From the sequence record MZ726792.1: a DNA stretch of 64,000 nt, one strand, 5' to 3'. The notes beneath the pieces are model-generated. The model was not told the origin of the DNA. It ran no database searches and worked only from the letters and a program-made list of their open reading frames with translations. Below, one piece after another: positions 5,061 through 61,051 of the stretch. Numbering within the stretch: the first letter of the stretch is position 1; each line of letters opens with the position of its first letter. A program made the translations under genes and the position numbers. Source of the DNA: Escherichia phage vB_EcoM_ASO1B.

Positions 5061-5136
5061 GTGGCCTTATCATAAATGGTAATGACCCATGCTGTGAACA
5101 TGGTCTATACGGGTTCAAATCCCGTAGGTCACCCCA
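5061..5136 (+). tRNA. tRNA-His (anticodon GTG)
   Basis: D-stem TCAT/ATGA, perfect anticodon stem CCATG/CATGG with loop CTGTGAA, T-loop TTCAAAT, CCA. Confidence 0.7.
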
Positions 5137-5141
5137 ATTTA

Positions 5142-5218
5142 TAGTCCAAGTAGCTTATATGGTTAAAGCGCGTGTCTGAAAAACATGAGAAGAGGGTTCA
5201 AATCCCACTGGACTACCA
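5142..5218 (+). tRNA. tRNA-Phe (anticodon GAA)
   Basis: Perfect 7-bp acceptor TAGTCCA/TGGACTA, anticodon loop CTGAAAA, T-loop TTCAAAT; 5' end and D-stem register uncertain. Confidence 0.55.
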
Positions 5219-5234
5219 ATTTCAAAGGTGCTTA

Positions 5235-5969
5235 ATGAAAGAGATGACAGAACAAGGTAAGGAGATTTTTAATCTCTTAAAAACCGGTAAAGGGTTTTCT
5301 AACCCACTTATTACTGGTGCAGCAGTTCTCGGTGGAACCGTAGCTGCCTCTACATCACTTGTAAGCTCTATTAGTTCTGTAACAGACCCTACAATGCAGG
5401 AGAAACTTGTTGCTGCTGGACTTACAACAGTCCTTCTAAACAGCTTTACAACAAGCCTTACAAGCACTACAGCAACTACTAAGACCCTGACAGACTACGG
5501 TCAAAAGTCTATTGATGAGTTTTCATCACGTATGCAGGTAGCAAAGGGATATTCCAATGTTATGAGTGCAGCAGGAGAACAAGTTGGTTGTACACCGTTC
5601 AGTGGTATTATGGGTGTTGCTACAGAATATGGTCAAAAAGCTATTGATACAATTAACAGTACACTAGAGAGTGTTAACGATGTATTAAGTGACTTACAAG
5701 ACGCTATTGATGAGGGTCTTGATACTATTTCTGATTTAGCTAATCAGGCTGTTAGTAAGATTAATGAAGGTATTTCAAAGATTACAGCTTATGCAGATGA
5801 AGTTGTGCAGATGATTGAAGAAGAAGCTGCCCTTATTGCAGAGTACCTTAAAACGAATATCAATGGGTTCTTAGCAGGTATCTTACCAGACTGGTTTGAC
5901 GATGCCTGTAAAACTGGTGTAATTGACACTATTGCAACACCAGAAATGAAGAACGCATTACAGAAATAA
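5235..5969 (+). CDS. hypothetical Ser/Thr/Ala-rich protein (245 aa)
   Basis: ORF in track; start moved to ATG 5235 (AAAGGTG ribosome-binding site) because the track start at 5172 lies inside tRNA-Phe. Confidence 0.55.
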   Translation: MKEMTEQGKEIFNLLKTGKGFSNPLITGAAVLGGTVAASTSLVSSISSVTDPTMQEKLVAAGLTTVLLNSFTTSLTSTTATTKTLTDYGQKSIDEFSSRMQVAKGYSNVMSAAGEQVGCTPFSGIMGVATEYGQKAIDTINSTLESVNDVLSDLQDAIDEGLDTISDLANQAVSKINEGISKITAYADEVVQMIEEEAALIAEYLKTNINGFLAGILPDWFDDACKTGVIDTIATPEMKNALQK

Positions 5970-5971
5970 AT

Positions 5972-6064
5972 GGAAGATTAACCCTAAAAGGTAAGGGAGC
6001 AGTTTGCTAAACTGCCAGTAGCTGAGAAATCGGTGTACCAGTTCAAGTCTGGTATCTTCCTCCA
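5972..6064 (+). tRNA. tRNA-Ser (anticodon GCT), long variable arm
   Basis: Perfect acceptor GGAAGAT/ATCTTCC, perfect anticodon stem GCAGT/ACTGC with loop TTGCTAA, 21-nt variable arm, perfect T-arm, CCA. Confidence 0.75.
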
Positions 6065-6068
6065 ATTT

Positions 6069-6144
6069 GAATCCGTGACAGAAATGGCTATGTGCCTGTC
6101 TGCAAAACAGGTTTATAAGGGTTCGAGTCCCTTCGGATTCTCCA
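6069..6144 (+). tRNA. tRNA-Cys (anticodon GCA)
   Basis: Perfect acceptor GAATCCG/CGGATTC, perfect anticodon stem CCTGT/ACAGG with loop CTGCAAA, T-loop TTCGAGT, CCA. Confidence 0.75.
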
Positions 6145-10173: not shown

Positions 10174-10505
10174 TGGGAACATTAACTATTGATGGTAAGA
10201 ATAAAATCCTCGCCACGCTAACCCCAACGACTATTATTTTACACAATGTAGACCCAACGGCAGACCCTACAGCAAATAAGGTTACTCAGCCAGTGGCTAT
10301 TTATTTTTCTGAACCGGATAATGGCTTAATTGCCTCAGAAGATACAGTTAATATTACTGTCCCAGCTTCTGCAACGGTCTCACACTATAGCTTGTGGGAT
10401 GCTAACGATAAATGCGTGGCAACTGGTGCTCTTAGCAAACCTCAATTCTTTGCTGAAGAAGGTATCTATGTTATCTCTTCAGTCTCTGTAGATTTAAACA
10501 AATAG
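10173..10505 (+). CDS. hypothetical protein (110 aa)
   Basis: ORF in track, start overlaps the upstream stop. Confidence 0.5.
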   Translation: MGTLTIDGKNKILATLTPTTIILHNVDPTADPTANKVTQPVAIYFSEPDNGLIASEDTVNITVPASATVSHYSLWDANDKCVATGALSKPQFFAEEGIYVISSVSVDLNK

Positions 10506-47121: not shown

Positions 47122-48168
47122 ATGGAGAAGTACACATTAACAAAACTTCCCGATTCAGTTACACATGTTTTTATTGACTCTGACAGTATTGCCTACAAAG
47201 GTGCTTGTGTAGTTGAGAAAGCAAAATATAAATATGTCAATAAACTCACAGCAGAAGAATCTGAGCCATTTGATAATGCGAAAGATGCTGCAAGATGGTT
47301 AGCAGACCAGAGAATCCTTGTGGAAGAACTTGGCCTGACATTTGATGAAGATGAATGGGAAAGACAGACTTGGAAAGAAGCTAAGAGTGAAAAAGAAGCT
47401 ATCATGGCTACTCAACAGGTGCTTCAGGAATGGCTTAAGGTTGTTGGGAAAGAAAGAACTTGGGTAGGTTATTTAACAGAGAAAGGTGTACATAAACATA
47501 AAGACATTAAAGGTCTTGAGCACCAATATCAAGGTAACCGTAAAGATGCTGTCACACCAACACACTTAGTTGCTTGTCGTGAGTATCTTCTGTCAAGACC
47601 AGAGTTCAAATTGATTCTTGATGGATTTGAAGCTGACTCTATCGTTATTGCTAAAGCTGAAAAGATGGGAAAAAAGGCTGCCTTGATGAGTATTGATAAA
47701 GACCTTCGCCAAGCTGAAGGGACTTACTGCATTGATATGACCTATGAAAAGTCGCCTTTGATTTTTATTGCTGATAACAACGTTGGTGAAATTTGGGATT
47801 GTCCAATAAAATCGACACCAAAAGCTAAGAAGGCAGTTGGGGTAGGTTTTAAATTTCTTTGTTACCAAGCTGTGGCTGGTGATAATGCTGATAATTATTT
47901 TGGTTTAAAGGGCGTTGGTAAGGCTACTGTAATGAAAGCCCTTGAAGGTAAAACTACTTATAAAGAGTGTCTTGATGCTATCTATGAACTTTATGCTAAG
48001 AAAGAGTCCTATACTTATGTCTCGTGGGATGGTCAAACAATTACCAGAACACCTTTAGAGTTAATGCAGCAACACTTTTTCTTAGCTTATCAGGAAAGAA
48101 ACAAGAAAGACGATTTCACTTTTGATAAGTATGGGTGGACACCAAATGTTAACTCAACAAACTCTTAA
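47122..48168 (+). CDS. 5'-3' exonuclease / flap endonuclease
   Basis: YQGNRKD motif and H3TH-like GDNADNYFGLKGVGKATVMK. Confidence 0.65.
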   Translation: MEKYTLTKLPDSVTHVFIDSDSIAYKGACVVEKAKYKYVNKLTAEESEPFDNAKDAARWLADQRILVEELGLTFDEDEWERQTWKEAKSEKEAIMATQQVLQEWLKVVGKERTWVGYLTEKGVHKHKDIKGLEHQYQGNRKDAVTPTHLVACREYLLSRPEFKLILDGFEADSIVIAKAEKMGKKAALMSIDKDLRQAEGTYCIDMTYEKSPLIFIADNNVGEIWDCPIKSTPKAKKAVGVGFKFLCYQAVAGDNADNYFGLKGVGKATVMKALEGKTTYKECLDAIYELYAKKESYTYVSWDGQTITRTPLELMQQHFFLAYQERNKKDDFTFDKYGWTPNVNSTNS

Positions 48169-48646
48169 AGAATACCTGCACTATGACCCCGAAACAGGGG
48201 TCTTTACTTGGTTAGTTGGTAGAAAAGGTAAGGCCAAAGCTGGCTCAGTAGCAGGTCTTAAACATCATAGTGGTTATATCTATATAAAACTCTTCGGAAA
48301 AAGATATGCAGCACACAGACTGGCATTCTTGTATATGAAAGGATACCTCCCAAAATTTGTTGACCACAAAAATGGTATCAGGCACGACAACTGGTTCGAC
48401 AATTTGAGAGAGTGTAGCAGGTCAGACAACAACTGCAATGCAGTCAAAAGAAAAGATAATAAGTCTGGTGTGAAGGGTGTATATTACCACAAGCAAAGAG
48501 GTAGATGGGCTGCACAAGTCAAGCATAATAAAGTATGCTACCATCTAGGTTTATTTGACTCTATCACTGAGGCTGAATCAGTTGTCAAAAAGAAAAGAGA
48601 AGAACTCCATAGAGAGTTTACAAATCACGGAGAAGCTCATGAATGA
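48146..48646 (+). CDS. HNH homing endonuclease with AP2-like C-terminal domain (paralogue 2)
   Basis: YDPETGVFTW, VDHKNGIRHDNWFDNLR, C-terminal GVKGVYYHKQRGRWAAQVKHNKV; overlaps the exonuclease 3' end. Confidence 0.8.
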   Translation: MLTQQTLKEYLHYDPETGVFTWLVGRKGKAKAGSVAGLKHHSGYIYIKLFGKRYAAHRLAFLYMKGYLPKFVDHKNGIRHDNWFDNLRECSRSDNNCNAVKRKDNKSGVKGVYYHKQRGRWAAQVKHNKVCYHLGLFDSITEAESVVKKKREELHREFTNHGEAHE

Positions 48647-49143
48647 TTAAAGTTAAAGGTTTTGGGAGTTGCCCCACTTATGGTCACTGGATTTCACTAT
48701 GTGGTGAAGTTGACCCAGCAAAGCACTTTGGTTTTGTCTACCTAGTGTACTGCAAAAAGACTGGACAGTACTATTTGGGTAAGAAACAGCTTAACAGTGT
48801 GACAAAAAGAAAAGTTGCTGGGAAGACTCGGAAGAAGGTAGTCACTAAGGAGAGTGATTGGATGACTTACGAAACCTCTTCTGAGTATATTAAAAAAGAT
48901 ATTGAAAGCTTTGGAAAAGAATCTTTTGATTTTTACATTATTCAAACCTACTACACAAAAGGTGGTCTAGTTTATGGTGAAGCAAACCTTCAACATAAAT
49001 TCGATGTAATGACAAAAAGGATTGACTCTAAGCTCAGACTCTTCTACAATGCCAATATTGCAGCAATTAAGTTTATTACTAAAGAAACTTATGAAGATGC
49101 TGAAAAAAGAATCCATAAGGTAATGAAAGCAAACTGTGCTTGA
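48643..49143 (+). CDS. putative GIY-YIG-like nuclease
   Basis: N-terminal GFVYLVYCKKTGQYYLGKK resembles the GIY-(10-11)-YIG motif; directly downstream of an HNH gene. Confidence 0.4.
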   Translation: MIKVKGFGSCPTYGHWISLCGEVDPAKHFGFVYLVYCKKTGQYYLGKKQLNSVTKRKVAGKTRKKVVTKESDWMTYETSSEYIKKDIESFGKESFDFYIIQTYYTKGGLVYGEANLQHKFDVMTKRIDSKLRLFYNANIAAIKFITKETYEDAEKRIHKVMKANCA

Positions 49144-50778: not shown

Positions 50779-50800
50779 GGAGCCTCTTCGGAGGCTCTTT
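50779..50800 (+). terminator. rho-independent terminator (UUCG tetraloop) upstream of nrdA
   Basis: GAGCCTC-TTCG-GAGGCTC followed by TTTT. Confidence 0.65.
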
Positions 50801-50819
50801 TCATCTGTAGGATTCAAAA

Positions 50820-53054
50820 ATGATTAAGACAATTAAAAAATCAAACGGTACAGTAGTAAGCTTTGACCCAGAAAGACTGAATAAGTGGGCATCATGGGCA
50901 GATAAGCGTGGAATCATCTGGTCAGAAGTCACTATGGAAGCCATGAAACGTGTCTATGAAGGTTGCACTACAAAAGAGATGCACCAAGCTATGATTGATG
51001 TTTGTGTTGATAAACAAACTCAAGAGTACTCAGACATGGCTGGACGGCTACTTCTAGGAATTATCTACAAAGAAGCCTTTGGAGGCTTTACTAAGGTTCC
51101 TACGCTGGTTACCTTCGTTAAAAATATGGAGAGAGCAGGACTTTGGGAGAAGATGGATTACTCACAGGAAGAGCTTGAATACCTGCAAGGTTACATCGTG
51201 CACTCAAAAGATATCTCTTACGGTTATGCAGTCTTGAAACAGTTCAGAGACAAGTATGGTATCCGTGATATTAAAACGGGAAGACTTTTTGAGTCACCAC
51301 AATTTATGTTTATGGGTATGGCTATGAAAGCCTTTGAGAAGCAACCAAAGCACCGTAGACTGCAAGATGTTATCAAGCTGTACACTTACCTATCTGACCT
51401 GAAGATTAACGCTCCTACGCCTTATTTAAACGGTTTGAGGGCAACTAAATCAGGTTATGCGTCATGCTGCTTGATTAAGGCAAACGATACTGCTGAATCA
51501 CTTGGTATTGCTGCAAAGGTTGCTTATGATATGACTACAAAGCAAGCTGGTATCGGTATGCTGATGGAGACTCGCACTATTGGTGATGGTATCCGTCAAA
51601 ACACTATCGAACACATGGGTAAACTGCCTTATTACAAGCTTGTACGTTCATCTGTAGAGGCAAACAAACAGAAGAGTCGTGGTGGTTCAGCTAATAACTT
51701 CTACACTGCTCTAGACCCGCAGATTGAAGATTTACTGCGTTTGAAGCACCCTACAACGGTTCCTTCTAAACGTATTAATGAGATGGACTACTCATTCGGC
51801 ACAAACGATTATTTCTGGCAGTGTGTTCAGTATGATACAGATTGGTTGCTATTCTCTTACAAAGATGCACCAAAACTCTATGACATGTTCTACACAGCAT
51901 CTGCTGATGAGTTTGCTATGGCAGTTGGTCACGCAGTACATTCAGGAGTTAAGCACAGACGAGTCAAGGCTCGTGAAATTGCTAAGCTGTTTATTCAACA
52001 GCGTTATGCTACAGGTCGTGTGTATCCATTCTTCACTAACAACGCAAACACACATACACCATTTAAAGAACCATTGAAGATGTCAAATCTTTGTATGGAA
52101 ATTGTGTTGCCAGTGTATGGTTTTGAGAAAGAGACAGACCTTTACAGAGACGATGCTGTGAAAGAGGATGGTGAGGTGGCTCTTTGCTTCCTAGCTAGTT
52201 TGGTTGCAGGGAGAATTTCAGAAGATGAATACGCTGACGTTGCTTATTATGCTCTTGCAATGGTTGACTCCGTTATTGACCTTATGGATTATCCGTATCC
52301 ATCGATGCGCAACCATGTTCAGAAGCGTCGTTCTGTTGGGATTGGCCTTACAAATGTGGCTCATTACCTTGCGAAGAACTACGTGAACTACTCTTCACGA
52401 GCAGGTAAAACGAAACTTCATGAACTGGCAGAGATGCACTCTTACTATCTGCATGAAGCCTCTCTGAGACTTGCTAAAGAGCGTGGCGTTCCAGAGTACA
52501 TGAAGTTCACTAAGTATCCTGAAGGCTGGGTTCCTCCAAAGACAGCTAACAAGAAGATTGATGAAAAGCATGATGCAAAACTACGATATGATTGGGATGA
52601 CTTAGCACAACGTATCAAAGAAAATGGTGGAATCCGAAACTCTGTATTAGAAGCTTACATGCCTAATGAGAGTTCTTCACTGGCAACTAATACGACAAAT
52701 GGCTTGTACCCAATTCGTGACTTTATTTTAACTAAAAAGTCTGCAACTGGTAACGTGCTGTTTATTGTTCCAGATTATGAAGAGTTGAAGTATGTATATG
52801 AAATTGCTTGGGGTATTGACACCTTTGACCTGATTGATTGTTATGCAATTGTTCAAAAGTTCACTGGTCAAGCTATCTCTTCAGATTTCTATGTTGACTA
52901 CGCAAAAGCTAAGAAGGTATCATTGGCTCAAGCTTTGAAGTACATGATTTATGCCAACTCGGTAGGTATGAAAACCATGTACTACCTTAACAGTCGCATT
53001 GGTGTAGGTAAATCTGCACTGCAAGATGCTTATTGCGAGGGTTGTGGTGTTTAG
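50820..53054 (+). CDS. nrdA: ribonucleotide reductase class Ia alpha subunit
   Basis: N-terminal ATP-cone, catalytic-site NLCMEI motif, C-terminal Cys pair; 744 aa. Confidence 0.9.
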   Translation: MIKTIKKSNGTVVSFDPERLNKWASWADKRGIIWSEVTMEAMKRVYEGCTTKEMHQAMIDVCVDKQTQEYSDMAGRLLLGIIYKEAFGGFTKVPTLVTFVKNMERAGLWEKMDYSQEELEYLQGYIVHSKDISYGYAVLKQFRDKYGIRDIKTGRLFESPQFMFMGMAMKAFEKQPKHRRLQDVIKLYTYLSDLKINAPTPYLNGLRATKSGYASCCLIKANDTAESLGIAAKVAYDMTTKQAGIGMLMETRTIGDGIRQNTIEHMGKLPYYKLVRSSVEANKQKSRGGSANNFYTALDPQIEDLLRLKHPTTVPSKRINEMDYSFGTNDYFWQCVQYDTDWLLFSYKDAPKLYDMFYTASADEFAMAVGHAVHSGVKHRRVKAREIAKLFIQQRYATGRVYPFFTNNANTHTPFKEPLKMSNLCMEIVLPVYGFEKETDLYRDDAVKEDGEVALCFLASLVAGRISEDEYADVAYYALAMVDSVIDLMDYPYPSMRNHVQKRRSVGIGLTNVAHYLAKNYVNYSSRAGKTKLHELAEMHSYYLHEASLRLAKERGVPEYMKFTKYPEGWVPPKTANKKIDEKHDAKLRYDWDDLAQRIKENGGIRNSVLEAYMPNESSSLATNTTNGLYPIRDFILTKKSATGNVLFIVPDYEELKYVYEIAWGIDTFDLIDCYAIVQKFTGQAISSDFYVDYAKAKKVSLAQALKYMIYANSVGMKTMYYLNSRIGVGKSALQDAYCEGCGV

Positions 53055-53109
53055 TTTTAATAACTATGAGGGTCGTAAAAGACCCTCTAAAAATAACTTT
53101 GGAGAGACC

Positions 53110-53367
53110 ATGAAAGATTTAATAGAAAAACATGAGCGACCAATATACTTGCTCTACAAACCCCGCAAAACATTGTACTATGTGAGCAGCACAGGTATCA
53201 TGATAAAGCAGAATGATGACTTATGGGTCACTGGAGCCTCTTACATCTCTACAGCAGATGGTAAAATCTACGCAAGACCTTATGAGATGTTTAACAAAGA
53301 AAATTGGGAAGTTTTAGACAGAAAACAAGCCTTAGAAATGATAAAGAAAGGAGAAATCACGCTATGA
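53110..53367 (+). CDS. hypothetical protein (85 aa) between nrdA and nrdB
   Basis: Track ORF trimmed to ATG 53110 with GGAGAG ribosome-binding site to avoid overlap with nrdA. Confidence 0.4.
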   Translation: MKDLIEKHERPIYLLYKPRKTLYYVSSTGIMIKQNDDLWVTGASYISTADGKIYARPYEMFNKENWEVLDRKQALEMIKKGEITL

Positions 53368-54437
53368 TTAACCAGCACCCAATCTTTTTAGGTGGTGAGA
53401 GAAAAACTTTTGACTCACTTAATAAACACTACCCAAAAATCTTTGAACTTTATAAACAACAAAAAGCACAAGACTGGTCAGAAGATGAGTTCCCTTTTGA
53501 ACAATCACGTCTTGATTTTGAGAGTGTCCCAGCATCAATGTCAGGTGTAATGCTTGAGATTCTTAAGTGGCAGTGGGAAGCAGATACTCAAGTTGCTAAG
53601 AGCTTGGCATTTGCCTTTGCACCATTTATCTCTGATGACATCTATGCAACTGCAATTATGAAGCAGTCTGAGATTGAAAACCTACATGCCCTTACTTACT
53701 CAGAGATTGTAAGGCAATGTATTAAAAACCCTGAAACAATCTTAGATGAGATTAACCAGAATGTTGCTGTGCAAGACCGATTAAAAACTGTGAATCGTGT
53801 TCTTGAAGAATTACTGGATGAAGGTATAAACTATCGTCTGAGTTATGTGCGTGATTCACTTCTGGACAAAGACCCTTTACACTTCCATAAAGTGATTCTA
53901 AAAGGTCTATTTGCAGTGACTGCACTTGAAGGTATATCTTTTATGGCATCCTTTGCATGCACTTTTGCACTTGATGCTCAAGATAAATTTCAGGGTATTG
54001 CTCAAGCTGTGCAGAAGATTATGCTTGATGAAATCCTTCACACTAAAATTGATATTGAAGTTTTAAAAGAAACTTTAAGAGATGATGAGTGGCAGAAAGC
54101 TTTTCAACAAATTCTTCCAGAGATTAAAGTAATCTTAGATGAAGTAGTTGAAAGTGAAGAGAAATGGTCGTATTATATCTTCTCCGAAGGACGTGCTGTA
54201 GTTGGCTTAAATACAAAGCTTCTTCATGAGTGGGTTTACTATAATGCTGCCCCACTGTATGATATGTTTGGCATTCCCAGAGATTTTGTAGCTCCTAAAG
54301 AACCACCTTTGAAGTACATGATTAAGAAGATGGAAATTGATAAAGAGCAGAATGCTAATCAGGAACAACAGAATGGCGCGTACCTATTGAATACTGTTGT
54401 AGATGATTTGAATAGTGGATTTTTAGAGGTTCCTTAA
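53364..54437 (+). CDS. nrdB: ribonucleotide reductase class Ia beta subunit
   Basis: About 357 aa, paired with nrdA; start set at ATG 53364 after AAAGGAG. Confidence 0.8.
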   Translation: MINQHPIFLGGERKTFDSLNKHYPKIFELYKQQKAQDWSEDEFPFEQSRLDFESVPASMSGVMLEILKWQWEADTQVAKSLAFAFAPFISDDIYATAIMKQSEIENLHALTYSEIVRQCIKNPETILDEINQNVAVQDRLKTVNRVLEELLDEGINYRLSYVRDSLLDKDPLHFHKVILKGLFAVTALEGISFMASFACTFALDAQDKFQGIAQAVQKIMLDEILHTKIDIEVLKETLRDDEWQKAFQQILPEIKVILDEVVESEEKWSYYIFSEGRAVVGLNTKLLHEWVYYNAAPLYDMFGIPRDFVAPKEPPLKYMIKKMEIDKEQNANQEQQNGAYLLNTVVDDLNSGFLEVP

Positions 54438-54679
54438 TGACTTATGTAATTTACTCCAAAACTGGATGCCCTCAGTGCGAGACTGCAAAGAATTTTGCAA
54501 AAGCTCGTGGTATTGACCATGTTGTGAGAATGTTAGGGCAGGACTATGAACTATCAGACCTGATTGATATTGCACAGATGCCAGTTCGTCAGATGCCATT
54601 CATCATGAAAACTGATGGGCAAAACCTAAAACATGTTGGTACGCTACAGAATTTTATGGCAGAGGTGAATAATGCTTAA
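54437..54679 (+). CDS. glutaredoxin-like protein (NrdH/NrdC-type)
   Basis: 80 aa with CPQC redox motif, directly downstream of nrdB. Confidence 0.75.
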   Translation: MTYVIYSKTGCPQCETAKNFAKARGIDHVVRMLGQDYELSDLIDIAQMPVRQMPFIMKTDGQNLKHVGTLQNFMAEVNNA

Positions 54680-54878
54680 ACGCATTTGGGAAGGTTTGGT
54701 TGTTGATGCACCAGCTATTGTGATTGGTATGCTTATCGTTAACCTATTTACTGACTTTGAACAAGGTTCATTGTTTGGAGCCATGTTACTATGGGTTATC
54801 TTCGAAATATTAGAGATACAGTTAGGTATCACTGAAAAACTAAGAGAACTCTTTGCGAAGTTTTCTAAAAAGATTTAA
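54672..54878 (+). CDS. small membrane protein (68 aa)
   Basis: Two hydrophobic segments; ORF in track. Confidence 0.4.
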   Translation: MLKRIWEGLVVDAPAIVIGMLIVNLFTDFEQGSLFGAMLLWVIFEILEIQLGITEKLRELFAKFSKKI

Positions 54879-54885
54879 AATGAAA

Positions 54886-54907
54886 GGGTCTCTTCGGAGA
54901 CCTTTTT
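54886..54907 (+). terminator. rho-independent terminator (UUCG tetraloop)
   Basis: GGGTCTC-TTCG-GAGACC followed by TTTTT. Confidence 0.65.
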
Positions 54908-54926
54908 AGCATGTAAAGGGGCAATA

Positions 54927-57071
54927 ATGAACAAAGTACAGATTATTAAAAAGAATGGCTCACTTGAAGAACCTGATATCAAAAAAGTTTTAGCAGCAGT
55001 CACAAAGTCAGCTAACAGAGTTGGTTATAAAGAGCTTCCACCAGATGTTACTCAAGCTCTTGAGTCAGCATTTATGAGGATTCTGGTAAAGTCCACTAAG
55101 CAGAATAATTTGCTAATTTCGGTAAATGATATTCACAGTATTGTTGAGGGTGCTTTGGCAGAAGTCAATCACGAGATTTATGAGTCTTACTCAACATATA
55201 GAAATTACCGTAAAGAGGTTGCTCAAAATTGGGATGAACTCTACCAGAAGACTAAAGATACACTCTTCTTAGGTGACCGAGAAAACGCTAATTTTGACAG
55301 CAGTTTAATTTCTACAAAAGGTTCAATTATTCGTGGTTATCTGACTAAAGAAATCTTTAAACAGTACCATTTAACACCAGAGGAACTTGAAGCCATTGAA
55401 AAAGGGTTTATCTACATCCATGATTTAAGAGACCTAATTTTTGGTGGTATCAACTGTTGCCTGTTTGACATTGGTAAAGTCCTGAAAGGTGGCTTTGAAA
55501 TGTCTGGCATCGAATATTGTGAACCGAAGTCTGTACTGTCAGCCTTACAGGTTATTGGTGATGTAGTTCTTTCAGCAACTGCACAGCAATTTGGTGGCTT
55601 TACTTTAGCAGAGATTGATAAGGTACTTGTACCGTATGCTAAGAAGTCTCTACACTATCATGCTGAGAAAGCAGCATCTTATGGTATTCCTAAAGAACAT
55701 TACCACAATTATGTCATGGAGCAGCTACAGATTGAACTGACTCAGGGTTTCCAGTCACTTGAAATGAAACTAAACACTGTACCTTGTAGTCGTGGGGATT
55801 TTGCATTCACAACTTTGACATTCGGGTTACTTGACTCAGATATGTCCAATGAAGATAACCGACTGCAATACATGATTGCAAGTACTCTCCTAGATGTTCG
55901 TATGAATGGACAAGGTAAGAGCAAGAAGCCTGTTGTATTCCCTAAACTGGTTTATATTTATGACCAGAAGAGACACGATGAGAATATCTGTCAAGGCCAC
56001 CTGTACAGTAAAGCTATTGAGTGTTGCTCTAAAGCAATGTATCCAGACTTCTTAAGTGTATCTGGTCATGGTGCTGTAGCAGAGGCTTTTGAGCGTTCTG
56101 GTAAGGTTATTTCACCAATGGGTTGCAGAGCTTTCTTGTCTCCATATCTTAATGAGGATGGGGAAGAGTTCTACGTTGGTCGTGCTAACATTGGTGCTGT
56201 ATCTTTGAACTTACCAATGATTTACCAGTATTCTAAAGAGAATGGATTAGACTTCTGGACAGAACTTGATAAATATCTCGAAATGATTCGTAGCTTCCAT
56301 AAGAAACGCTACGAAATGATTGCTAATATGCCAGCAAGTTCTAACCCTCTTGCATTCACACAAGGTGGTCTGTACAAAGGAACTAAGAAACCTACTGACA
56401 AGGTTGGTTGGGATATTGTGAAGTCCTTCACAGCTTCTTTTGGTGTTACTGCGCTTGATGAGTTGTCTGTTCTTGCTGAAGGTAAACGACTTCATGAAGT
56501 TGGAAGCTATAGTTTTGCATATGATGTTCTGGCATACATCAACATGAAAACCGAAGAGTTTAAAAATGAAGATGGCTTCTTATATGCCGTCTATGGTACT
56601 CCAGCAGAATCACTATGTGGGACTCAGCTAAAACAGTTCAGAGATATGTTTGGGGTTATCAAAGGTGTTTCCGATAAGGAATACTTTACAAACAGTTTCC
56701 ATATGAATGTTGCAGCAGACATCTCGCCATTTGAGAAGCAGGACTTAGAAGAGCCATTCTTCCATATCTGTAGAGGCGGTAGAATCCAGTATGTAAGAGT
56801 AGCTAACCCAGAAAACTTAACAGCACTTAAAAGTTGTATTACAAGAGGGATGTTGAAAGGTTTCTATCAGGGGCTTAACTTTGACTTAGCAATCTGTGAA
56901 CATTGTGGTAACAGACCAAAGGCTGATGTTGAAGAATGTGAGGTTTGCCATTCACATGATATCTCTGTGATTAACAGGGTGTGTGGGTATCTTGGATGGA
57001 CTAAGATTAAAGGTGAATCCCGAATGAACGATGCAAAAATCGCTGAGATTCGTGATAGAGTCTCTATGTAA
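54927..57071 (+). CDS. nrdD: anaerobic ribonucleoside-triphosphate reductase
   Basis: C-terminal Zn ribbon CEHCG...CEVCH and glycyl-radical motif RVCGYLG; 714 aa. Confidence 0.9.
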   Translation: MNKVQIIKKNGSLEEPDIKKVLAAVTKSANRVGYKELPPDVTQALESAFMRILVKSTKQNNLLISVNDIHSIVEGALAEVNHEIYESYSTYRNYRKEVAQNWDELYQKTKDTLFLGDRENANFDSSLISTKGSIIRGYLTKEIFKQYHLTPEELEAIEKGFIYIHDLRDLIFGGINCCLFDIGKVLKGGFEMSGIEYCEPKSVLSALQVIGDVVLSATAQQFGGFTLAEIDKVLVPYAKKSLHYHAEKAASYGIPKEHYHNYVMEQLQIELTQGFQSLEMKLNTVPCSRGDFAFTTLTFGLLDSDMSNEDNRLQYMIASTLLDVRMNGQGKSKKPVVFPKLVYIYDQKRHDENICQGHLYSKAIECCSKAMYPDFLSVSGHGAVAEAFERSGKVISPMGCRAFLSPYLNEDGEEFYVGRANIGAVSLNLPMIYQYSKENGLDFWTELDKYLEMIRSFHKKRYEMIANMPASSNPLAFTQGGLYKGTKKPTDKVGWDIVKSFTASFGVTALDELSVLAEGKRLHEVGSYSFAYDVLAYINMKTEEFKNEDGFLYAVYGTPAESLCGTQLKQFRDMFGVIKGVSDKEYFTNSFHMNVAADISPFEKQDLEEPFFHICRGGRIQYVRVANPENLTALKSCITRGMLKGFYQGLNFDLAICEHCGNRPKADVEECEVCHSHDISVINRVCGYLGWTKIKGESRMNDAKIAEIRDRVSM

Positions 57072-57079
57072 AACTTGAC

Positions 57080-57125
57080 AAGGTGATGTGGGTCTTGATA
57101 GGCTTACATCACCTTTTTTTTTTTT
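57080..57125 (+). terminator. rho-independent terminator after nrdD
   Basis: AGGTGATGT-loop-ACATCACCT followed by a 13-nt T-run. Confidence 0.65.
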
Positions 57126-57232
57126 TATTGGATGTTAGATATGGCAGAGAACATCATTGGCCTATTCATAGGTTCTGTCTTACTAGGGTTCTTTTTAGGA
57201 CTCTCTTATTGTGAATTAAGAGGCAAGTTAAA

Positions 57233-57433
57233 ATGTTTAAAATATCAAAATCGTTGATATACATTCTCCACATTCTAATCTTCTTCTTTGGGGTTAGTGT
57301 TATGGTATGGGGTTTTTCAGACCCACAGTGGAGTTTATCATATCATGGTCAGATGGATTTATGGTCATGCTTCAAACCATTTTTAGGGTTAGCCATAGCA
57401 TTCAGTGTATTGCCAACTAAGGTGAAATTATGA
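57233..57433 (+). CDS. small membrane protein (66 aa)
   Basis: ORF in track, hydrophobic. Confidence 0.4.
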   Translation: MFKISKSLIYILHILIFFFGVSVMVWGFSDPQWSLSYHGQMDLWSCFKPFLGLAIAFSVLPTKVKL

Positions 57434-57825
57434 TTAAGTTGAACAAAAAACAGTTAGAGTGGATTAAAGATTATGCCTCAGAGTGCGGCTCTTGCGAAAA
57501 GAATCACGTAAGATATTCAACATTCCATGCGACCTTCACATTGTACATCAGCGACAACGTTCTAAGTGATTCCGTAGAAGATGGTGTAGCGTTACCTAAT
57601 GAATTACTTGACAAATTAGCTGTAGTTACTGGAACGTGGAGTGAAGAAGATGGTCACGAACTATCTGACAATGTTGTCTTCTACAGTCTTGAAAATATTA
57701 TGAATCCAGAGTACATTATGTTAATGACTTGTGCACAAGACTGTGTGCCATTACAAAACTTCATTAAAGAGCATTGTGAAGAGTTTATTACTAAACAGGT
57801 TCCTTGTCAGGTGGTGTTTGAATGA
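57430..57825 (+). CDS. hypothetical protein (131 aa)
   Basis: ORF in track. Confidence 0.45.
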   Translation: MIKLNKKQLEWIKDYASECGSCEKNHVRYSTFHATFTLYISDNVLSDSVEDGVALPNELLDKLAVVTGTWSEEDGHELSDNVVFYSLENIMNPEYIMLMTCAQDCVPLQNFIKEHCEEFITKQVPCQVVFE

Positions 57826-58121
57826 GTAAAACAATTCGAAGAAAAGGTTTAAAGAACGTTCACGGACTCTATGAGTGGAGGAATGAGGTACGTAACAGAG
57901 AAAATGCTTCAGATGTCTACTTCCATTCTGATATGATGTCCAGAAAAGGTGGCTCTTATGACTTTACAAGTCAGCCTTGTAGAGAGATTAAGCAGGCTAC
58001 TAAACGTCTTACAAGAACACAAATCAGTCAGCTTTCTAAGACATCCTTCTTAGATGAAGATTTTGACATTGACAGCAAGTCTCCAAAGAAAGCTGCTCAG
58101 AGCACTTATATGTATTGGTGA
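57822..58121 (+). CDS. hypothetical protein (99 aa)
   Basis: ORF in track. Confidence 0.45.
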   Translation: MSKTIRRKGLKNVHGLYEWRNEVRNRENASDVYFHSDMMSRKGGSYDFTSQPCREIKQATKRLTRTQISQLSKTSFLDEDFDIDSKSPKKAAQSTYMYW

Positions 58122-58130
58122 GGTAACTAG

Positions 58131-58616
58131 ATGAATTACATGGAGATTAGACCATTTGACACAGCTAATGGTGAAGGGGTTCGTGTAAGCCTCTTCGTAG
58201 CTGGTTGTAAACATCACTGTGAAGGCTGCTTTAACAGGGAGTCTTGGAAGTTTAATGCTGGTAAAGAGTTCACTTATGCAAACCTCTATGGCATCATTAA
58301 ATTAATGGATGATAATGCCGTCAGTGGGTTGTCAATACTTGGTGGAGAACCTCTGGATGATAGAAATATTCAAGAGGTTACCAACATATGCAAACGTATT
58401 AAAACCGTTTACCCAGAAAAATCTATCTGGCTATGGACAGGTTTTCAGTTACACGAAAAAATTCACCTAGATGTGATGAAATATGTTGACGTGGTGATTG
58501 ATGGTAAGTATGATTCATCTAAACCAACAGTTAAACCATATCGTGGTTCTGATAACCAAAACCTCTGGAGAAAAGAGTATGGATGGCAAGGCGATTGTCA
58601 ATGGAGAGCCGAGTAA
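58131..58616 (+). CDS. nrdG: anaerobic ribonucleotide reductase activating protein (radical SAM)
   Basis: CKHHCEGC radical-SAM cysteine motif; 161 aa. Confidence 0.8.
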   Translation: MNYMEIRPFDTANGEGVRVSLFVAGCKHHCEGCFNRESWKFNAGKEFTYANLYGIIKLMDDNAVSGLSILGGEPLDDRNIQEVTNICKRIKTVYPEKSIWLWTGFQLHEKIHLDVMKYVDVVIDGKYDSSKPTVKPYRGSDNQNLWRKEYGWQGDCQWRAE

Positions 58617-59371: not shown

Positions 59372-59887
59372 ATGTATCTGTCAAACCTAAAACGTTCTGC
59401 TGCAATGTCAGTTCTAAGACTCAGCTTTGATGAGCGTCAAGAGTTTATAGACTCCCACAAATATGACCCTTCAAATTCTAATCACATGGTTCTTTGGAAT
59501 CGTGATAACTTCCGTGAAAGAGCACTTGTCCGTTATTACCCACACTACACAATAGATAACCTGTATGAATGGTGTGTTGTGAAGAACACCATTGCAACAC
59601 TGAACAATCTTTGCAGGTATACGGGTAAGCAAACATTTACATTAGGTCATCACAAACCTGTTACAAAAGGTGGTGAACATCACTGTGCAAACTGGTTTAT
59701 CCAAACTAAAACTGATAACCAGAAGCAAGGAGATAGCCTCCTAAGTATCCCCAAGATGACCTATGAAGAGCAAGAGAAATATATCAAAAATAATATGCCA
59801 GATGTGCTTGACAACAACTATACAGATTTGGCAATATCTCTCCTGTTGAAGTTCGAGACAGTTTATAGGGCAACTTATAATGGCTAA
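59372..59887 (+). CDS. putative HNH-family nuclease (171 aa)
   Basis: LGHHKPVTKGGEHHCANWFIQTKTDNQKQG resembles an HNH core. Confidence 0.4.
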   Translation: MYLSNLKRSAAMSVLRLSFDERQEFIDSHKYDPSNSNHMVLWNRDNFRERALVRYYPHYTIDNLYEWCVVKNTIATLNNLCRYTGKQTFTLGHHKPVTKGGEHHCANWFIQTKTDNQKQGDSLLSIPKMTYEEQEKYIKNNMPDVLDNNYTDLAISLLLKFETVYRATYNG

Positions 59888-60158
59888 AGAAAAGTGGGAG
59901 ATTTTACCATTAGTCAGTGAAGGAGGTAATGGTTGTGAAATGTACATGATACGTGGTCATGTTCCAGAGCCAATTGCACTTGAGATGGTAAACAACTTTA
60001 CAGATGGTTCTTACAAAGACTTAGGCGAACCAACTGTCAAGCAACAATGGGTAAAGCCTGTACCAGACAGCACAGGTAACTGTAGTGTACTTTACCACGT
60101 TGTAGACCCTGTAAAATGCAAATCTGCAATGGCAGTAACAAACGTAACTTTTGATTGA
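59880..60158 (+). CDS. hypothetical protein (92 aa)
   Basis: ORF in track. Confidence 0.45.
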   Translation: MAKEKWEILPLVSEGGNGCEMYMIRGHVPEPIALEMVNNFTDGSYKDLGEPTVKQQWVKPVPDSTGNCSVLYHVVDPVKCKSAMAVTNVTFD

Positions 60159-60169
60159 GAGAGAAAACT

Positions 60170-61051
60170 ATGAAAACATCTATCCGTGTCACAATTCATT
60201 CACCGACTAAAGGAACTCATGAAGAAGAGTTTAACATCATCCAATTCCCTTCTGGTGAGATTGGTGGCCACTTTTCACAAGAGCTTGTTGATTTTACTGC
60301 TTATGCAGCATCATCTATTAACAATGTGGTTATGATTGTAAAGGGTTATGACAAAGACACACTGTTTGCTGTGGCACTGGCTAAAGAAGCAATTGACGAT
60401 TTAGTTCCTCATGATTATGCCCTGAAGACTGTCATTTTTTACTACTTGCCAAATGCACGATACGACCGTCACATGTTTAAAGGCGACGCAGCAGCTTTAA
60501 AGGTTTTTGCTAAACAGGTAAATGCAATGGGATTTGGTGCAGTCTGTGCAGTTGACCCTCACAGTTACGTTCCAGATAACCTGTTTAACTGCTTCCAGAG
60601 TATTCCTCAAAAGGAGATTGCAGTCCACTATGCAAATGACCCACTGGTTGATTACTTAGTAGCCCCAGATGCAGGTGCTGCTAAGAAGGTTGCAGAGACC
60701 GCTAAAGAGGTGGGTAAACCATATATCACAATGTCTAAAGTACGCAACCTTAAGACTGGTGAAATTACTGGTATGCGAATCCTTGATGATGTTGATTTGA
60801 CAGATAAAACCGTCATGATTCTGGATGATATCTGTGATGGTGGTCGAACCTTCATAGAAGCAGCGAAACATCTTCGTGAAGCAGGTGCAAAACGTGTGGA
60901 ACTTTATGTAACACATGGTATCTTCTCTAAAGATGTTGAAAACCTTCTTGACAATGGTATCGACCATATTTACACTACAAACTCTTTAGGTGAAGCTAAA
61001 GACCGTGGCTTAACACATTATAGTCAAGTTACTGTAGCAAATTTGGATTAG
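60170..61051 (+). CDS. prs: ribose-phosphate pyrophosphokinase (PRPP synthetase)
   Basis: PRPP-binding motif VMILDDICDGGRT; start set at ATG 60170. Confidence 0.8.
   Translation: MKTSIRVTIHSPTKGTHEEEFNIIQFPSGEIGGHFSQELVDFTAYAASSINNVVMIVKGYDKDTLFAVALAKEAIDDLVPHDYALKTVIFYYLPNARYDRHMFKGDAAALKVFAKQVNAMGFGAVCAVDPHSYVPDNLFNCFQSIPQKEIAVHYANDPLVDYLVAPDAGAAKKVAETAKEVGKPYITMSKVRNLKTGEITGMRILDDVDLTDKTVMILDDICDGGRTFIEAAKHLREAGAKRVELYVTHGIFSKDVENLLDNGIDHIYTTNSLGEAKDRGLTHYSQVTVANLD

Follow-up and report, generated by a model that had tools for sequence, protein, structure and literature searches.

Predicted aerobic and anaerobic ribonucleotide reductase systems within 8 kb of the genome of Escherichia phage vB_EcoM_ASO1B

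Background

Bacteriophage Felix O1 was shown to contain an "nrdABDG cluster" that includes a gene for a glutaredoxin of 80 amino acids (aa) (Whichard et al. 2010, PMC3185647). Class I and class III ribonucleotide reductases (RNRs) were later found together in 27% of RNR-bearing phage genomes, and most phages of facultative anaerobes carry this combination (Dwivedi et al. 2013, PMC3653736). We report herein on a window of 64,000 nucleotides (nt) of Escherichia phage vB_EcoM_ASO1B (MZ726792.1), in which a region of 7.8 kb, from position 50820 to 58616, contains genes of both classes. An initial annotation of the window had claimed that a complete class Ia system with a CPQC glutaredoxin and a complete class III system with a glycyl-radical motif and a radical S-adenosylmethionine (SAM) activase occur here within 8 kb, separated by small open reading frames (ORFs) and terminators, and that the synthesis of deoxynucleoside triphosphates (dNTPs) is thereby independent of the oxygen status of the host.

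A cluster of this kind has been known since 2010; it is ordinary among phages of gut bacteria, and phages that infect facultative anaerobes typically have it. The genes in the window, their order and the lengths of their products (744, 357, 80, 714 and 161 aa) are like those of Felix O1 and the genus Felixounavirus, with no difference of substance. Relative to some members of that genus, such as SEP1, the window is distinguished by an intron-less nrdD and by 1 kb of small ORFs that separates nrdD from nrdG. T4 is likewise a lytic coliphage with a class Ia enzyme, a class III enzyme and a small redoxin of its own (nrdC); its NrdA also ends in a CxxC pair, and small ORFs of unknown function also lie around its nrdA and nrdB. 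However, the NrdA of the window is only 33% identical to that of T4, and the NrdD about 30%. T4 NrdD has no N-terminal ATP-cone region (matches begin at query residues 92-118), whereas the NrdD encoded here has one. In T4, moreover, the two classes lie far apart in the genome and nrdB is interrupted by an intron, whereas here they are intron-less and fall within 8 kb. The nrdD gene of T4 is intron-bearing as well (PMC3185647).

Homologues of NrdD occur in 2913 phage records (tblastn). Among the matches listed, the closest one from a phage outside the Ounavirinae is the NrdD of Vibrio phage ICP1, with 53.8% identity. ICP1 and T5-like phages carry class I and class III with hypothetical genes between them, but in other gene orders and with phoH between the classes (PMC3653736). 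No phoH-like gene is annotated in the block studied here, and the intervening ORFs have no such match in Pfam, NCBIfam or PHROG. Identities to the enzymes of Escherichia coli K-12 are 34.5% for NrdA, 24.8% for NrdB, 31.3% for NrdD and 39.2% for NrdG, so that these genes are no recent capture from the host. The phage and E. coli enzymes have in common the ATP-cone plus barrel architecture (with a degenerate cone in the phage NrdA), the catalytic and radical-transfer residues and the Met-Gly-Cys motif. They differ in the C-terminal cysteine pair of NrdA, which is Cx4C in E. coli and CxxC here, and no YfaE-like small ORF and no FNR or NrdR operator was found near the phage genes.

Results

Five genes for two reductase systems

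The ORF list for 48-61 kb contains five long ORFs, all on the + strand and all placed as the initial annotation had them. The three genes assigned to the aerobic system are nrdA (50820-53054; 744 aa), for the alpha subunit of a class Ia ribonucleotide reductase; nrdB (53364-54437; 357 aa), for the class Ia beta subunit with its di-iron/tyrosyl-radical site; and grx (54437-54679), for an 80-aa redoxin of glutaredoxin fold with the motif CPQC. The anaerobic system comprises an intron-less nrdD (54927-57071; 714 aa), for a class III ribonucleoside-triphosphate reductase, and nrdG (58131-58616; 161 aa), for the radical-SAM activase of NrdD. The length of NrdB is counted from an ATG; an alternative that starts with TTG begins at 53304. 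Family matches of the block go far beyond chance, with E-values down to 1e-173. We have little doubt that the region is the module by which a Felix O1-like (Felixounavirus) coliphage supplies deoxynucleotides, arranged as nrdA-orf-nrdB-grx-orf-nrdD ... nrdG.

The block recurs in 262 phage records, mostly Felixounaviruses of Escherichia, Salmonella and Shigella. In 245 of these records, with the genes named as here, at least 80% of the region is covered, and in most of the 262 the nucleotide identity is 95-100%. The nearest record, vB_EcoM_ASO1A (MZ726791.1), is 100% identical over the 7.8-kb region except for a 2-nt difference in length, and its annotation names the nrd genes as ribonucleoside reductase alpha and beta subunits, glutaredoxin, and anaerobic reductase with its small subunit. 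The same gene order of the nrd cluster was found in Shigella phage Sf13, which belongs to another genus of the Ounavirinae (Mooglevirus).

The aerobic system

NrdA is matched by the Pfam family Ribonuc_red_lgC (PF02867; E=2e-90) and by TIGR02506 with 578 bits (cutoff 341), and it aligns over its full length with structures of E. coli R1 (E=4.5e-126). The class Ia model scores 502 bits on this protein, versus 149 bits for the class Ib model. Functional residues of NrdA, NrdB, NrdD and NrdG were mapped by global alignment to the respective proteins of E. coli K-12 (nrdAB and nrdDG loci). By this alignment C216, N423, C425, E427 and C456 of the phage NrdA are equivalent to C225, N437, C439, E441 and C462 of E. 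coli, and the radical-transfer residues Y721/Y722 to Y730/Y731. Near the C-terminus a further pair, C739-x2-C742, is present with the CxxC spacing of T4.

NrdB passes the Pfam cutoff of PF00268 (119.7 versus 33.6 bits) and aligns over its full length with class Ia R2 structures (E=4e-30 for 7mdi chain E and 2.5e-27 for E. coli R2). Its best NCBIfam match is the class Ia beta model, with 131.6 bits against a cutoff of 346. All six metal ligands are kept (D74, E105, H108, E189, E223 and H226, equivalent to E. coli D84, E115, H118, E204, E238 and H241), as are the radical tyrosine Y112 (Y122 in E. coli), W38 (W48) and the C-terminal Y340 (Y356).

The redoxin gene overlaps the end of nrdB, and the motif CPQC occupies residues 11-14 of its product. 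The protein passes the Pfam cutoff of PF00462 (29.9 versus 22.9 bits) and is matched by phrog_22. All of its sequence-level matches are weak, and the glutaredoxin (Grx) and NrdH models of NCBIfam score far under their cutoffs. A single-sequence AlphaFold2 model (predicted local distance difference test, pLDDT, 79.5) has the glutaredoxin topology beta-alpha-beta-alpha-beta-beta-alpha. Its best fold matches in the Protein Data Bank are Grx1/Grx3, with template-modelling (TM) scores of 0.70-0.76, T4 glutaredoxin (1aba; 0.73) and NrdH (0.69); Grx1, T4 glutaredoxin and NrdH thus fit the model to nearly the same degree. As modelled, the 80-aa redoxin is a glutaredoxin-fold protein. We take its CPQC to be a hybrid of the CPYC of glutaredoxins and the CVQC of NrdH; the corresponding motif of T4 is CVYC.

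The anaerobic system

NrdD is matched by PF13597 (E=5e-114) and by TIGR02487 with 484.7 bits (cutoff 326.35), and aligns over its full length with solved NrdD structures, including that of T4 (E=1.6e-76 and 8.9e-75). It also has a Gly_radical domain match and the glycyl-radical motif RVCGYLG, within NRVCGYLGW, in which G687 is equivalent to E. coli G681. C400, C177 and M398 are aligned with C384, C175 and M382 of E. coli, N421 is also kept, and so is the four-Cys Zn site (C657, C660, C671 and C674). The motif Met398-Gly-Cys400 points to the formate-dependent subtype, to which the enzymes of E. coli and T4 also belong.

NrdG passes TIGR02491 with 198 bits (cutoff 126.1) and is matched by PF13353 (E=3.5e-43). 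The radical-SAM motif C26-x3-C30-x2-C33 is kept, and a GGEP motif occurs in the translation. Thus the CPQC glutaredoxin, the glycyl-radical motif and the activase motif of the initial annotation are all present; in the domain searches that it had proposed, NrdA, NrdD and NrdG scored above curated equivalog cutoffs, and NrdB and the glutaredoxin above those of Pfam. None of the mapped catalytic, radical-transfer, metal-binding and glycyl-radical residues is lost from NrdA, NrdB, NrdD or NrdG.

Selection on the five genes

Ratios of nonsynonymous to synonymous substitution rates (dN/dS) relative to Sf13 are 0.055 for nrdA, 0.026 for nrdB, 0.188 for grx, 0.081 for nrdD and 0.037 for nrdG, with synonymous divergence (dS) of 0.7-1.6. 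As estimated from these ratios, purifying selection acts strongly on each of the five genes. Values of 0.03-0.19 indicate that both systems are maintained by selection and that neither is decaying.

Small ORFs, junctions and terminators

The genes are separated in the manner that had been claimed: small ORFs that belong to conserved PHROG families and three hairpins followed by T-runs lie between and around them. The first putative terminator (50779-50808, + strand; GAGCCTC-TTCG-GAGGCTC followed by TTTTC) closes the upstream unit 12 nt 5' of nrdA. It is annotated as a rho-independent terminator in MZ726791.1 and was missed by our simple terminator scan. The second (54886-54908, + strand; GGGTCTC-TTCG-GAGACC followed by TTTTT) lies between the 68-aa ORF described below and nrdD, and the scan listed this palindrome on the - strand. 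The third and strongest, an intrinsic terminator with a 16-bp stem followed by a T-run (57080-57125, + strand), stands 3' of nrdD, is annotated in MZ726791.1 and is retained in Salmonella phage SEP1.

Between nrdA and nrdB lies an ORF of 85 aa (53110-53367, + strand; phrog_2652, E=8.5e-37). It is annotated as a 113-aa ORF from 53026 that overlaps the end of nrdA; since the PHROG profile covers residues 29-113 only, translation probably starts at Met29 (53110). Its counterpart in Sf13 occupies the same position and is 32% identical, with a dN/dS of about 0.33, which denotes a conserved place but fast divergence. No Pfam or NCBIfam assignment was obtained for this ORF; a likeness to DUF1653 is not supported (only E=0.13 in a Pfam search at E<=10). 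A second ORF, hydrophobic and 68 aa long (54672-54878, + strand; phrog_4532, E=3.9e-42), follows grx and is named a membrane protein in the annotation of relatives.

Four further small ORFs, all on the + strand and all matched by conserved PHROG families that are annotated as of unknown function or as membrane proteins, form an accessory block between the nrdD terminator and nrdG (57132-58121). They encode two predicted membrane proteins of 41 aa (57132-57257) and 66 aa (57233-57433), a protein of 131 aa (57430-57825) and a protein of 99 aa (57822-58121) with a weak likeness to DUF5499 (19.9 bits versus a cutoff of 27). About 1 kb, from 57116 to 58121, behaves as an indel among relatives: it is absent from SEP1, where nrdG directly follows the terminator and both ends of the deletion fall in a short TATTGG repeat. 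The block is dispensable. A blastp comparison of the small ORFs with the YfaE ferredoxin and with nrdA.1, nrdA.2 and nrdB.1 of T4 gave nothing below E=0.1, and NCBIfam gave no match for them.

The stop codon of the 85-aa ORF overlaps the start of nrdB (ATGA), a single base is common to nrdB and grx (TAATG), and grx and the 68-aa ORF overlap by 8 nt. Such junctions suggest that the genes from nrdA through the 68-aa ORF are translationally coupled. Matches to sigma-70-like promoters in the region are not above chance (33 versus 26.4±5.1 expected), and no promoters were therefore assigned. Searches for operators of the oxygen-responsive FNR (TTGAT-N4-ATCAA with at most one mismatch) gave six matches versus 5.2 expected, none of which falls among the nrd genes; the closest one lies downstream of nrdG, at 59427. 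For the dNTP-responsive NrdR, a single box was found at 10382 (at most three mismatches; 1.9 expected), and none near the nrd genes. Because no site of either kind lies near these genes, both systems would be expressed from phage signals at any oxygen level.

A group I intron in nrdD of relatives

The annotation of some relatives divides nrdD into two pieces. Those of SEP1 (MW311372.1), of 399 and 284 aa, lie on either side of a group I intron (Rfam RF00028; 54.8 bits, gathering threshold 50, E=5.5e-13) at 2583-3106 of the MW311372.1 stretch examined. The intron lies exactly between the codons for Gly399 and Cys400, directly before the catalytic cysteine. A T ends the upstream exon, a G ends the intron, and exon 2 resumes with TGT AGA GCG (C-R-A). 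Given these correct splice-site bases in a group I intron, the "split" nrdD of the relatives is probably spliced rather than broken. About 94 phage records contain the nrdD intron at 95% identity or more, some of them with an HNH endonuclease gene inside, and the intron core is about 71% like that of the td intron of T-even phages. In the window the allele is intron-less and the corresponding site (56123|56124) is empty, and an Rfam search of the whole window at gathering thresholds gave only tRNA matches and no intron. In the literature searched, nrdD is presented as a gene that a homing endonuclease has split, and the interruption is not called an intron.

Genome setting

Elsewhere in the ASO1A record, tRNA genes, structural genes, td, frd, a deoxynucleoside monophosphate (dNMP) kinase, DNA polymerase, primase/helicase and ligase are annotated. 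Downstream of the nrd block the window contains genes for phosphoribosyl pyrophosphate (PRPP) synthetase (60155-61051) and NAMPT. The window, too, carries td, frd and the dNMP kinase, and the nrd block is one part of a broad module for precursor supply and replication.

Other observations concern the surroundings. The 2-nt difference from MZ726791.1 sits between nrdD and nrdG (57071-58131), where the offset of the coordinates goes from 23615 to 23613, and the long T-run of the terminator (57116-57128) is its probable place. The 23 tRNA hits (RF00005) form an array on the + strand at 993-6141. While the nrd regions of the two phages are collinear, the array is displaced by some 1.6 kb from its place in the ASO1A record, so that the window either is not just the genome of ASO1A or departs from it through upstream indels. 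Free-standing homing-endonuclease genes flank the genes of nucleotide metabolism: an HNH/AP2-like gene at 48122-48646, a GIY-YIG gene at 48643-49143, and another HNH gene after that for PRPP synthetase, downstream of 61051.

Discussion

We infer from the enzyme families how the two enzymes would work, which reductants they would use and that they would supply dNTPs at any oxygen level. In the aerobic enzyme, a di-iron tyrosyl radical would be built on Y112 of NrdB and passed through NrdB (W38 and Y340) and NrdA (Y721/Y722) to C425 of the latter. Ribonucleoside diphosphates would be reduced at the C216/C456 pair, which would in turn be re-reduced via C739/C742 by the co-encoded CPQC glutaredoxin. 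In the anaerobic enzyme, NrdG, with a [4Fe-4S] cluster on C26/C30/C33, would cleave SAM and place a radical on G687 of NrdD, from where it would reach C400; formate would then serve as the reductant of ribonucleoside triphosphates (Met398/C177 type). Which of the two enzymes works would depend on oxygen itself, which is required to build the tyrosyl radical and destroys the glycyl radical. As there is no FNR or NrdR operator near the genes, the choice between the enzymes is probably made by this chemistry and not by transcription.

The description of both systems as complete holds for the parts that a phage can encode, but both still depend on cofactors of the host. Class III enzymes such as those of E. 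coli and T4 also draw on the host for flavodoxin, flavodoxin reductase, SAM and formate, and a glutaredoxin requires host glutathione and glutathione reductase, or thioredoxin reductase. In like manner, the claim that dNTP synthesis is independent of the oxygen status of the host is the standard reading of such a gene set, one that the sequence supports as a prediction.

Several points weigh against an oxygen-independent supply of dNTPs by two working phage systems. The nrdG gene lies behind a strong terminator and about 1 kb from nrdD, so that co-expression of NrdD and its activase has to be assumed. NrdB and the glutaredoxin fall below every NCBIfam equivalog cutoff because they are divergent (NrdB is only 24.8% identical to that of E. 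coli). The N-terminal ATP-cone of NrdA (residues 1-95; 50820-51110) has the right length but scores 20.5 bits, under the Pfam cutoff of 25.8. Moreover, E. coli possesses both classes itself, and oxygen independence does not strictly depend on the phage copies. Hence, the benefit may equally well be a higher flux or an escape from regulation by the host.

Three other readings of the locus were weighed. The phage reductases might be kept mainly for dNTP flux and for escape from host control (NrdR repression and dATP feedback), with oxygen independence as a by-product of copying the two-class set of a host that encodes NrdAB and NrdDG. The lack of NrdR boxes and FNR sites near the phage genes is in line with this, as are an NrdA ATP-cone without equivalents of R10, E15 and F87 (T4 NrdA is also without R10 and E15) and the general precursor supply suggested by td, frd, the dNMP kinase, PRPP synthetase and NAMPT. 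The idea is compatible with a supply of dNTPs at any oxygen level; as the main explanation, however, we consider it unlikely, though by no means negligible. For flux alone a class Ia enzyme would be enough, yet purifying selection on class III is just as strong here, and among phages in general class III goes with hosts that are facultative anaerobes (PMC3653736).

It is very improbable that either system is a remnant in decay that has ceased to work. The scores of NrdB and the glutaredoxin under the NCBIfam cutoffs, that of the NrdA ATP-cone under the Pfam cutoff and the annotation of nrdD as two pieces in some relatives could be read in this way, but the ORFs are intact and of full length, the functional residues are all kept, dN/dS is 0.03-0.19, and in the "split" nrdD of the relatives the group I intron has the right bases at its splice sites. 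Nor is there much room for NrdD and NrdG as some other glycyl-radical enzyme with its activase, for instance one like pyruvate formate-lyase (PFL). The Gly_radical domain match and the alignment of NrdG with a PFL-activase structure (E=2e-5) would fit such a pair; however, the NrdD-specific TIGR02487 and the NrdG-specific TIGR02491 are both passed, PFL-activase models score far under their cutoffs, an N-terminal ATP-cone is present, and PMGC in the finger loop and a Zn site of four cysteines are shared with E. coli and T4 NrdD. This last reading is refuted at the level of sequence, and its probability is close to nil. Two intact reductase systems, one aerobic and one anaerobic, thus remain the preferred interpretation.

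By alignment with E. coli R1, the ATP-cone of NrdA is degenerate. At nucleotide-contacting positions R10 is replaced by S, E15 by V and F87 by G, while the equivalents of K9, T55, H59 and K91 are retained; the changes at R10, E15 and F87 are identical in Sf13. In the ATP-cone of T4 NrdA, R10 is replaced by S and E15 by Q. The ATP-cone of NrdD in the same cluster scores well (46.2 bits). These replacements hint that the aerobic enzyme may be free of feedback inhibition by dATP. The T4 reductase is reportedly not inhibited by dATP, a finding attributed to Berglund in 1972. Loss of such inhibition, if it has occurred here, may be convergent or may be shared with T4, despite an identity of only 33% between the two NrdA proteins. 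A broader proposal, that a phage class Ia enzyme without dATP feedback inhibition is combined with one or more coupled small ORFs serving as reductase accessory factors, is speculative and, in our estimate, rather improbable; the candidates would be the 85-aa ORF and the 68-aa membrane ORF.

Beyond correct annotation the significance of the cluster is small, and the degenerate ATP-cone of NrdA and the mis-annotated nrdD intron of relatives are mildly useful leads. For Felix O1-like phages, which are used in the typing and in the biocontrol of Salmonella and E. coli, the cluster would explain how dNTPs are supplied both in aerated settings and in anoxic ones such as the gut.

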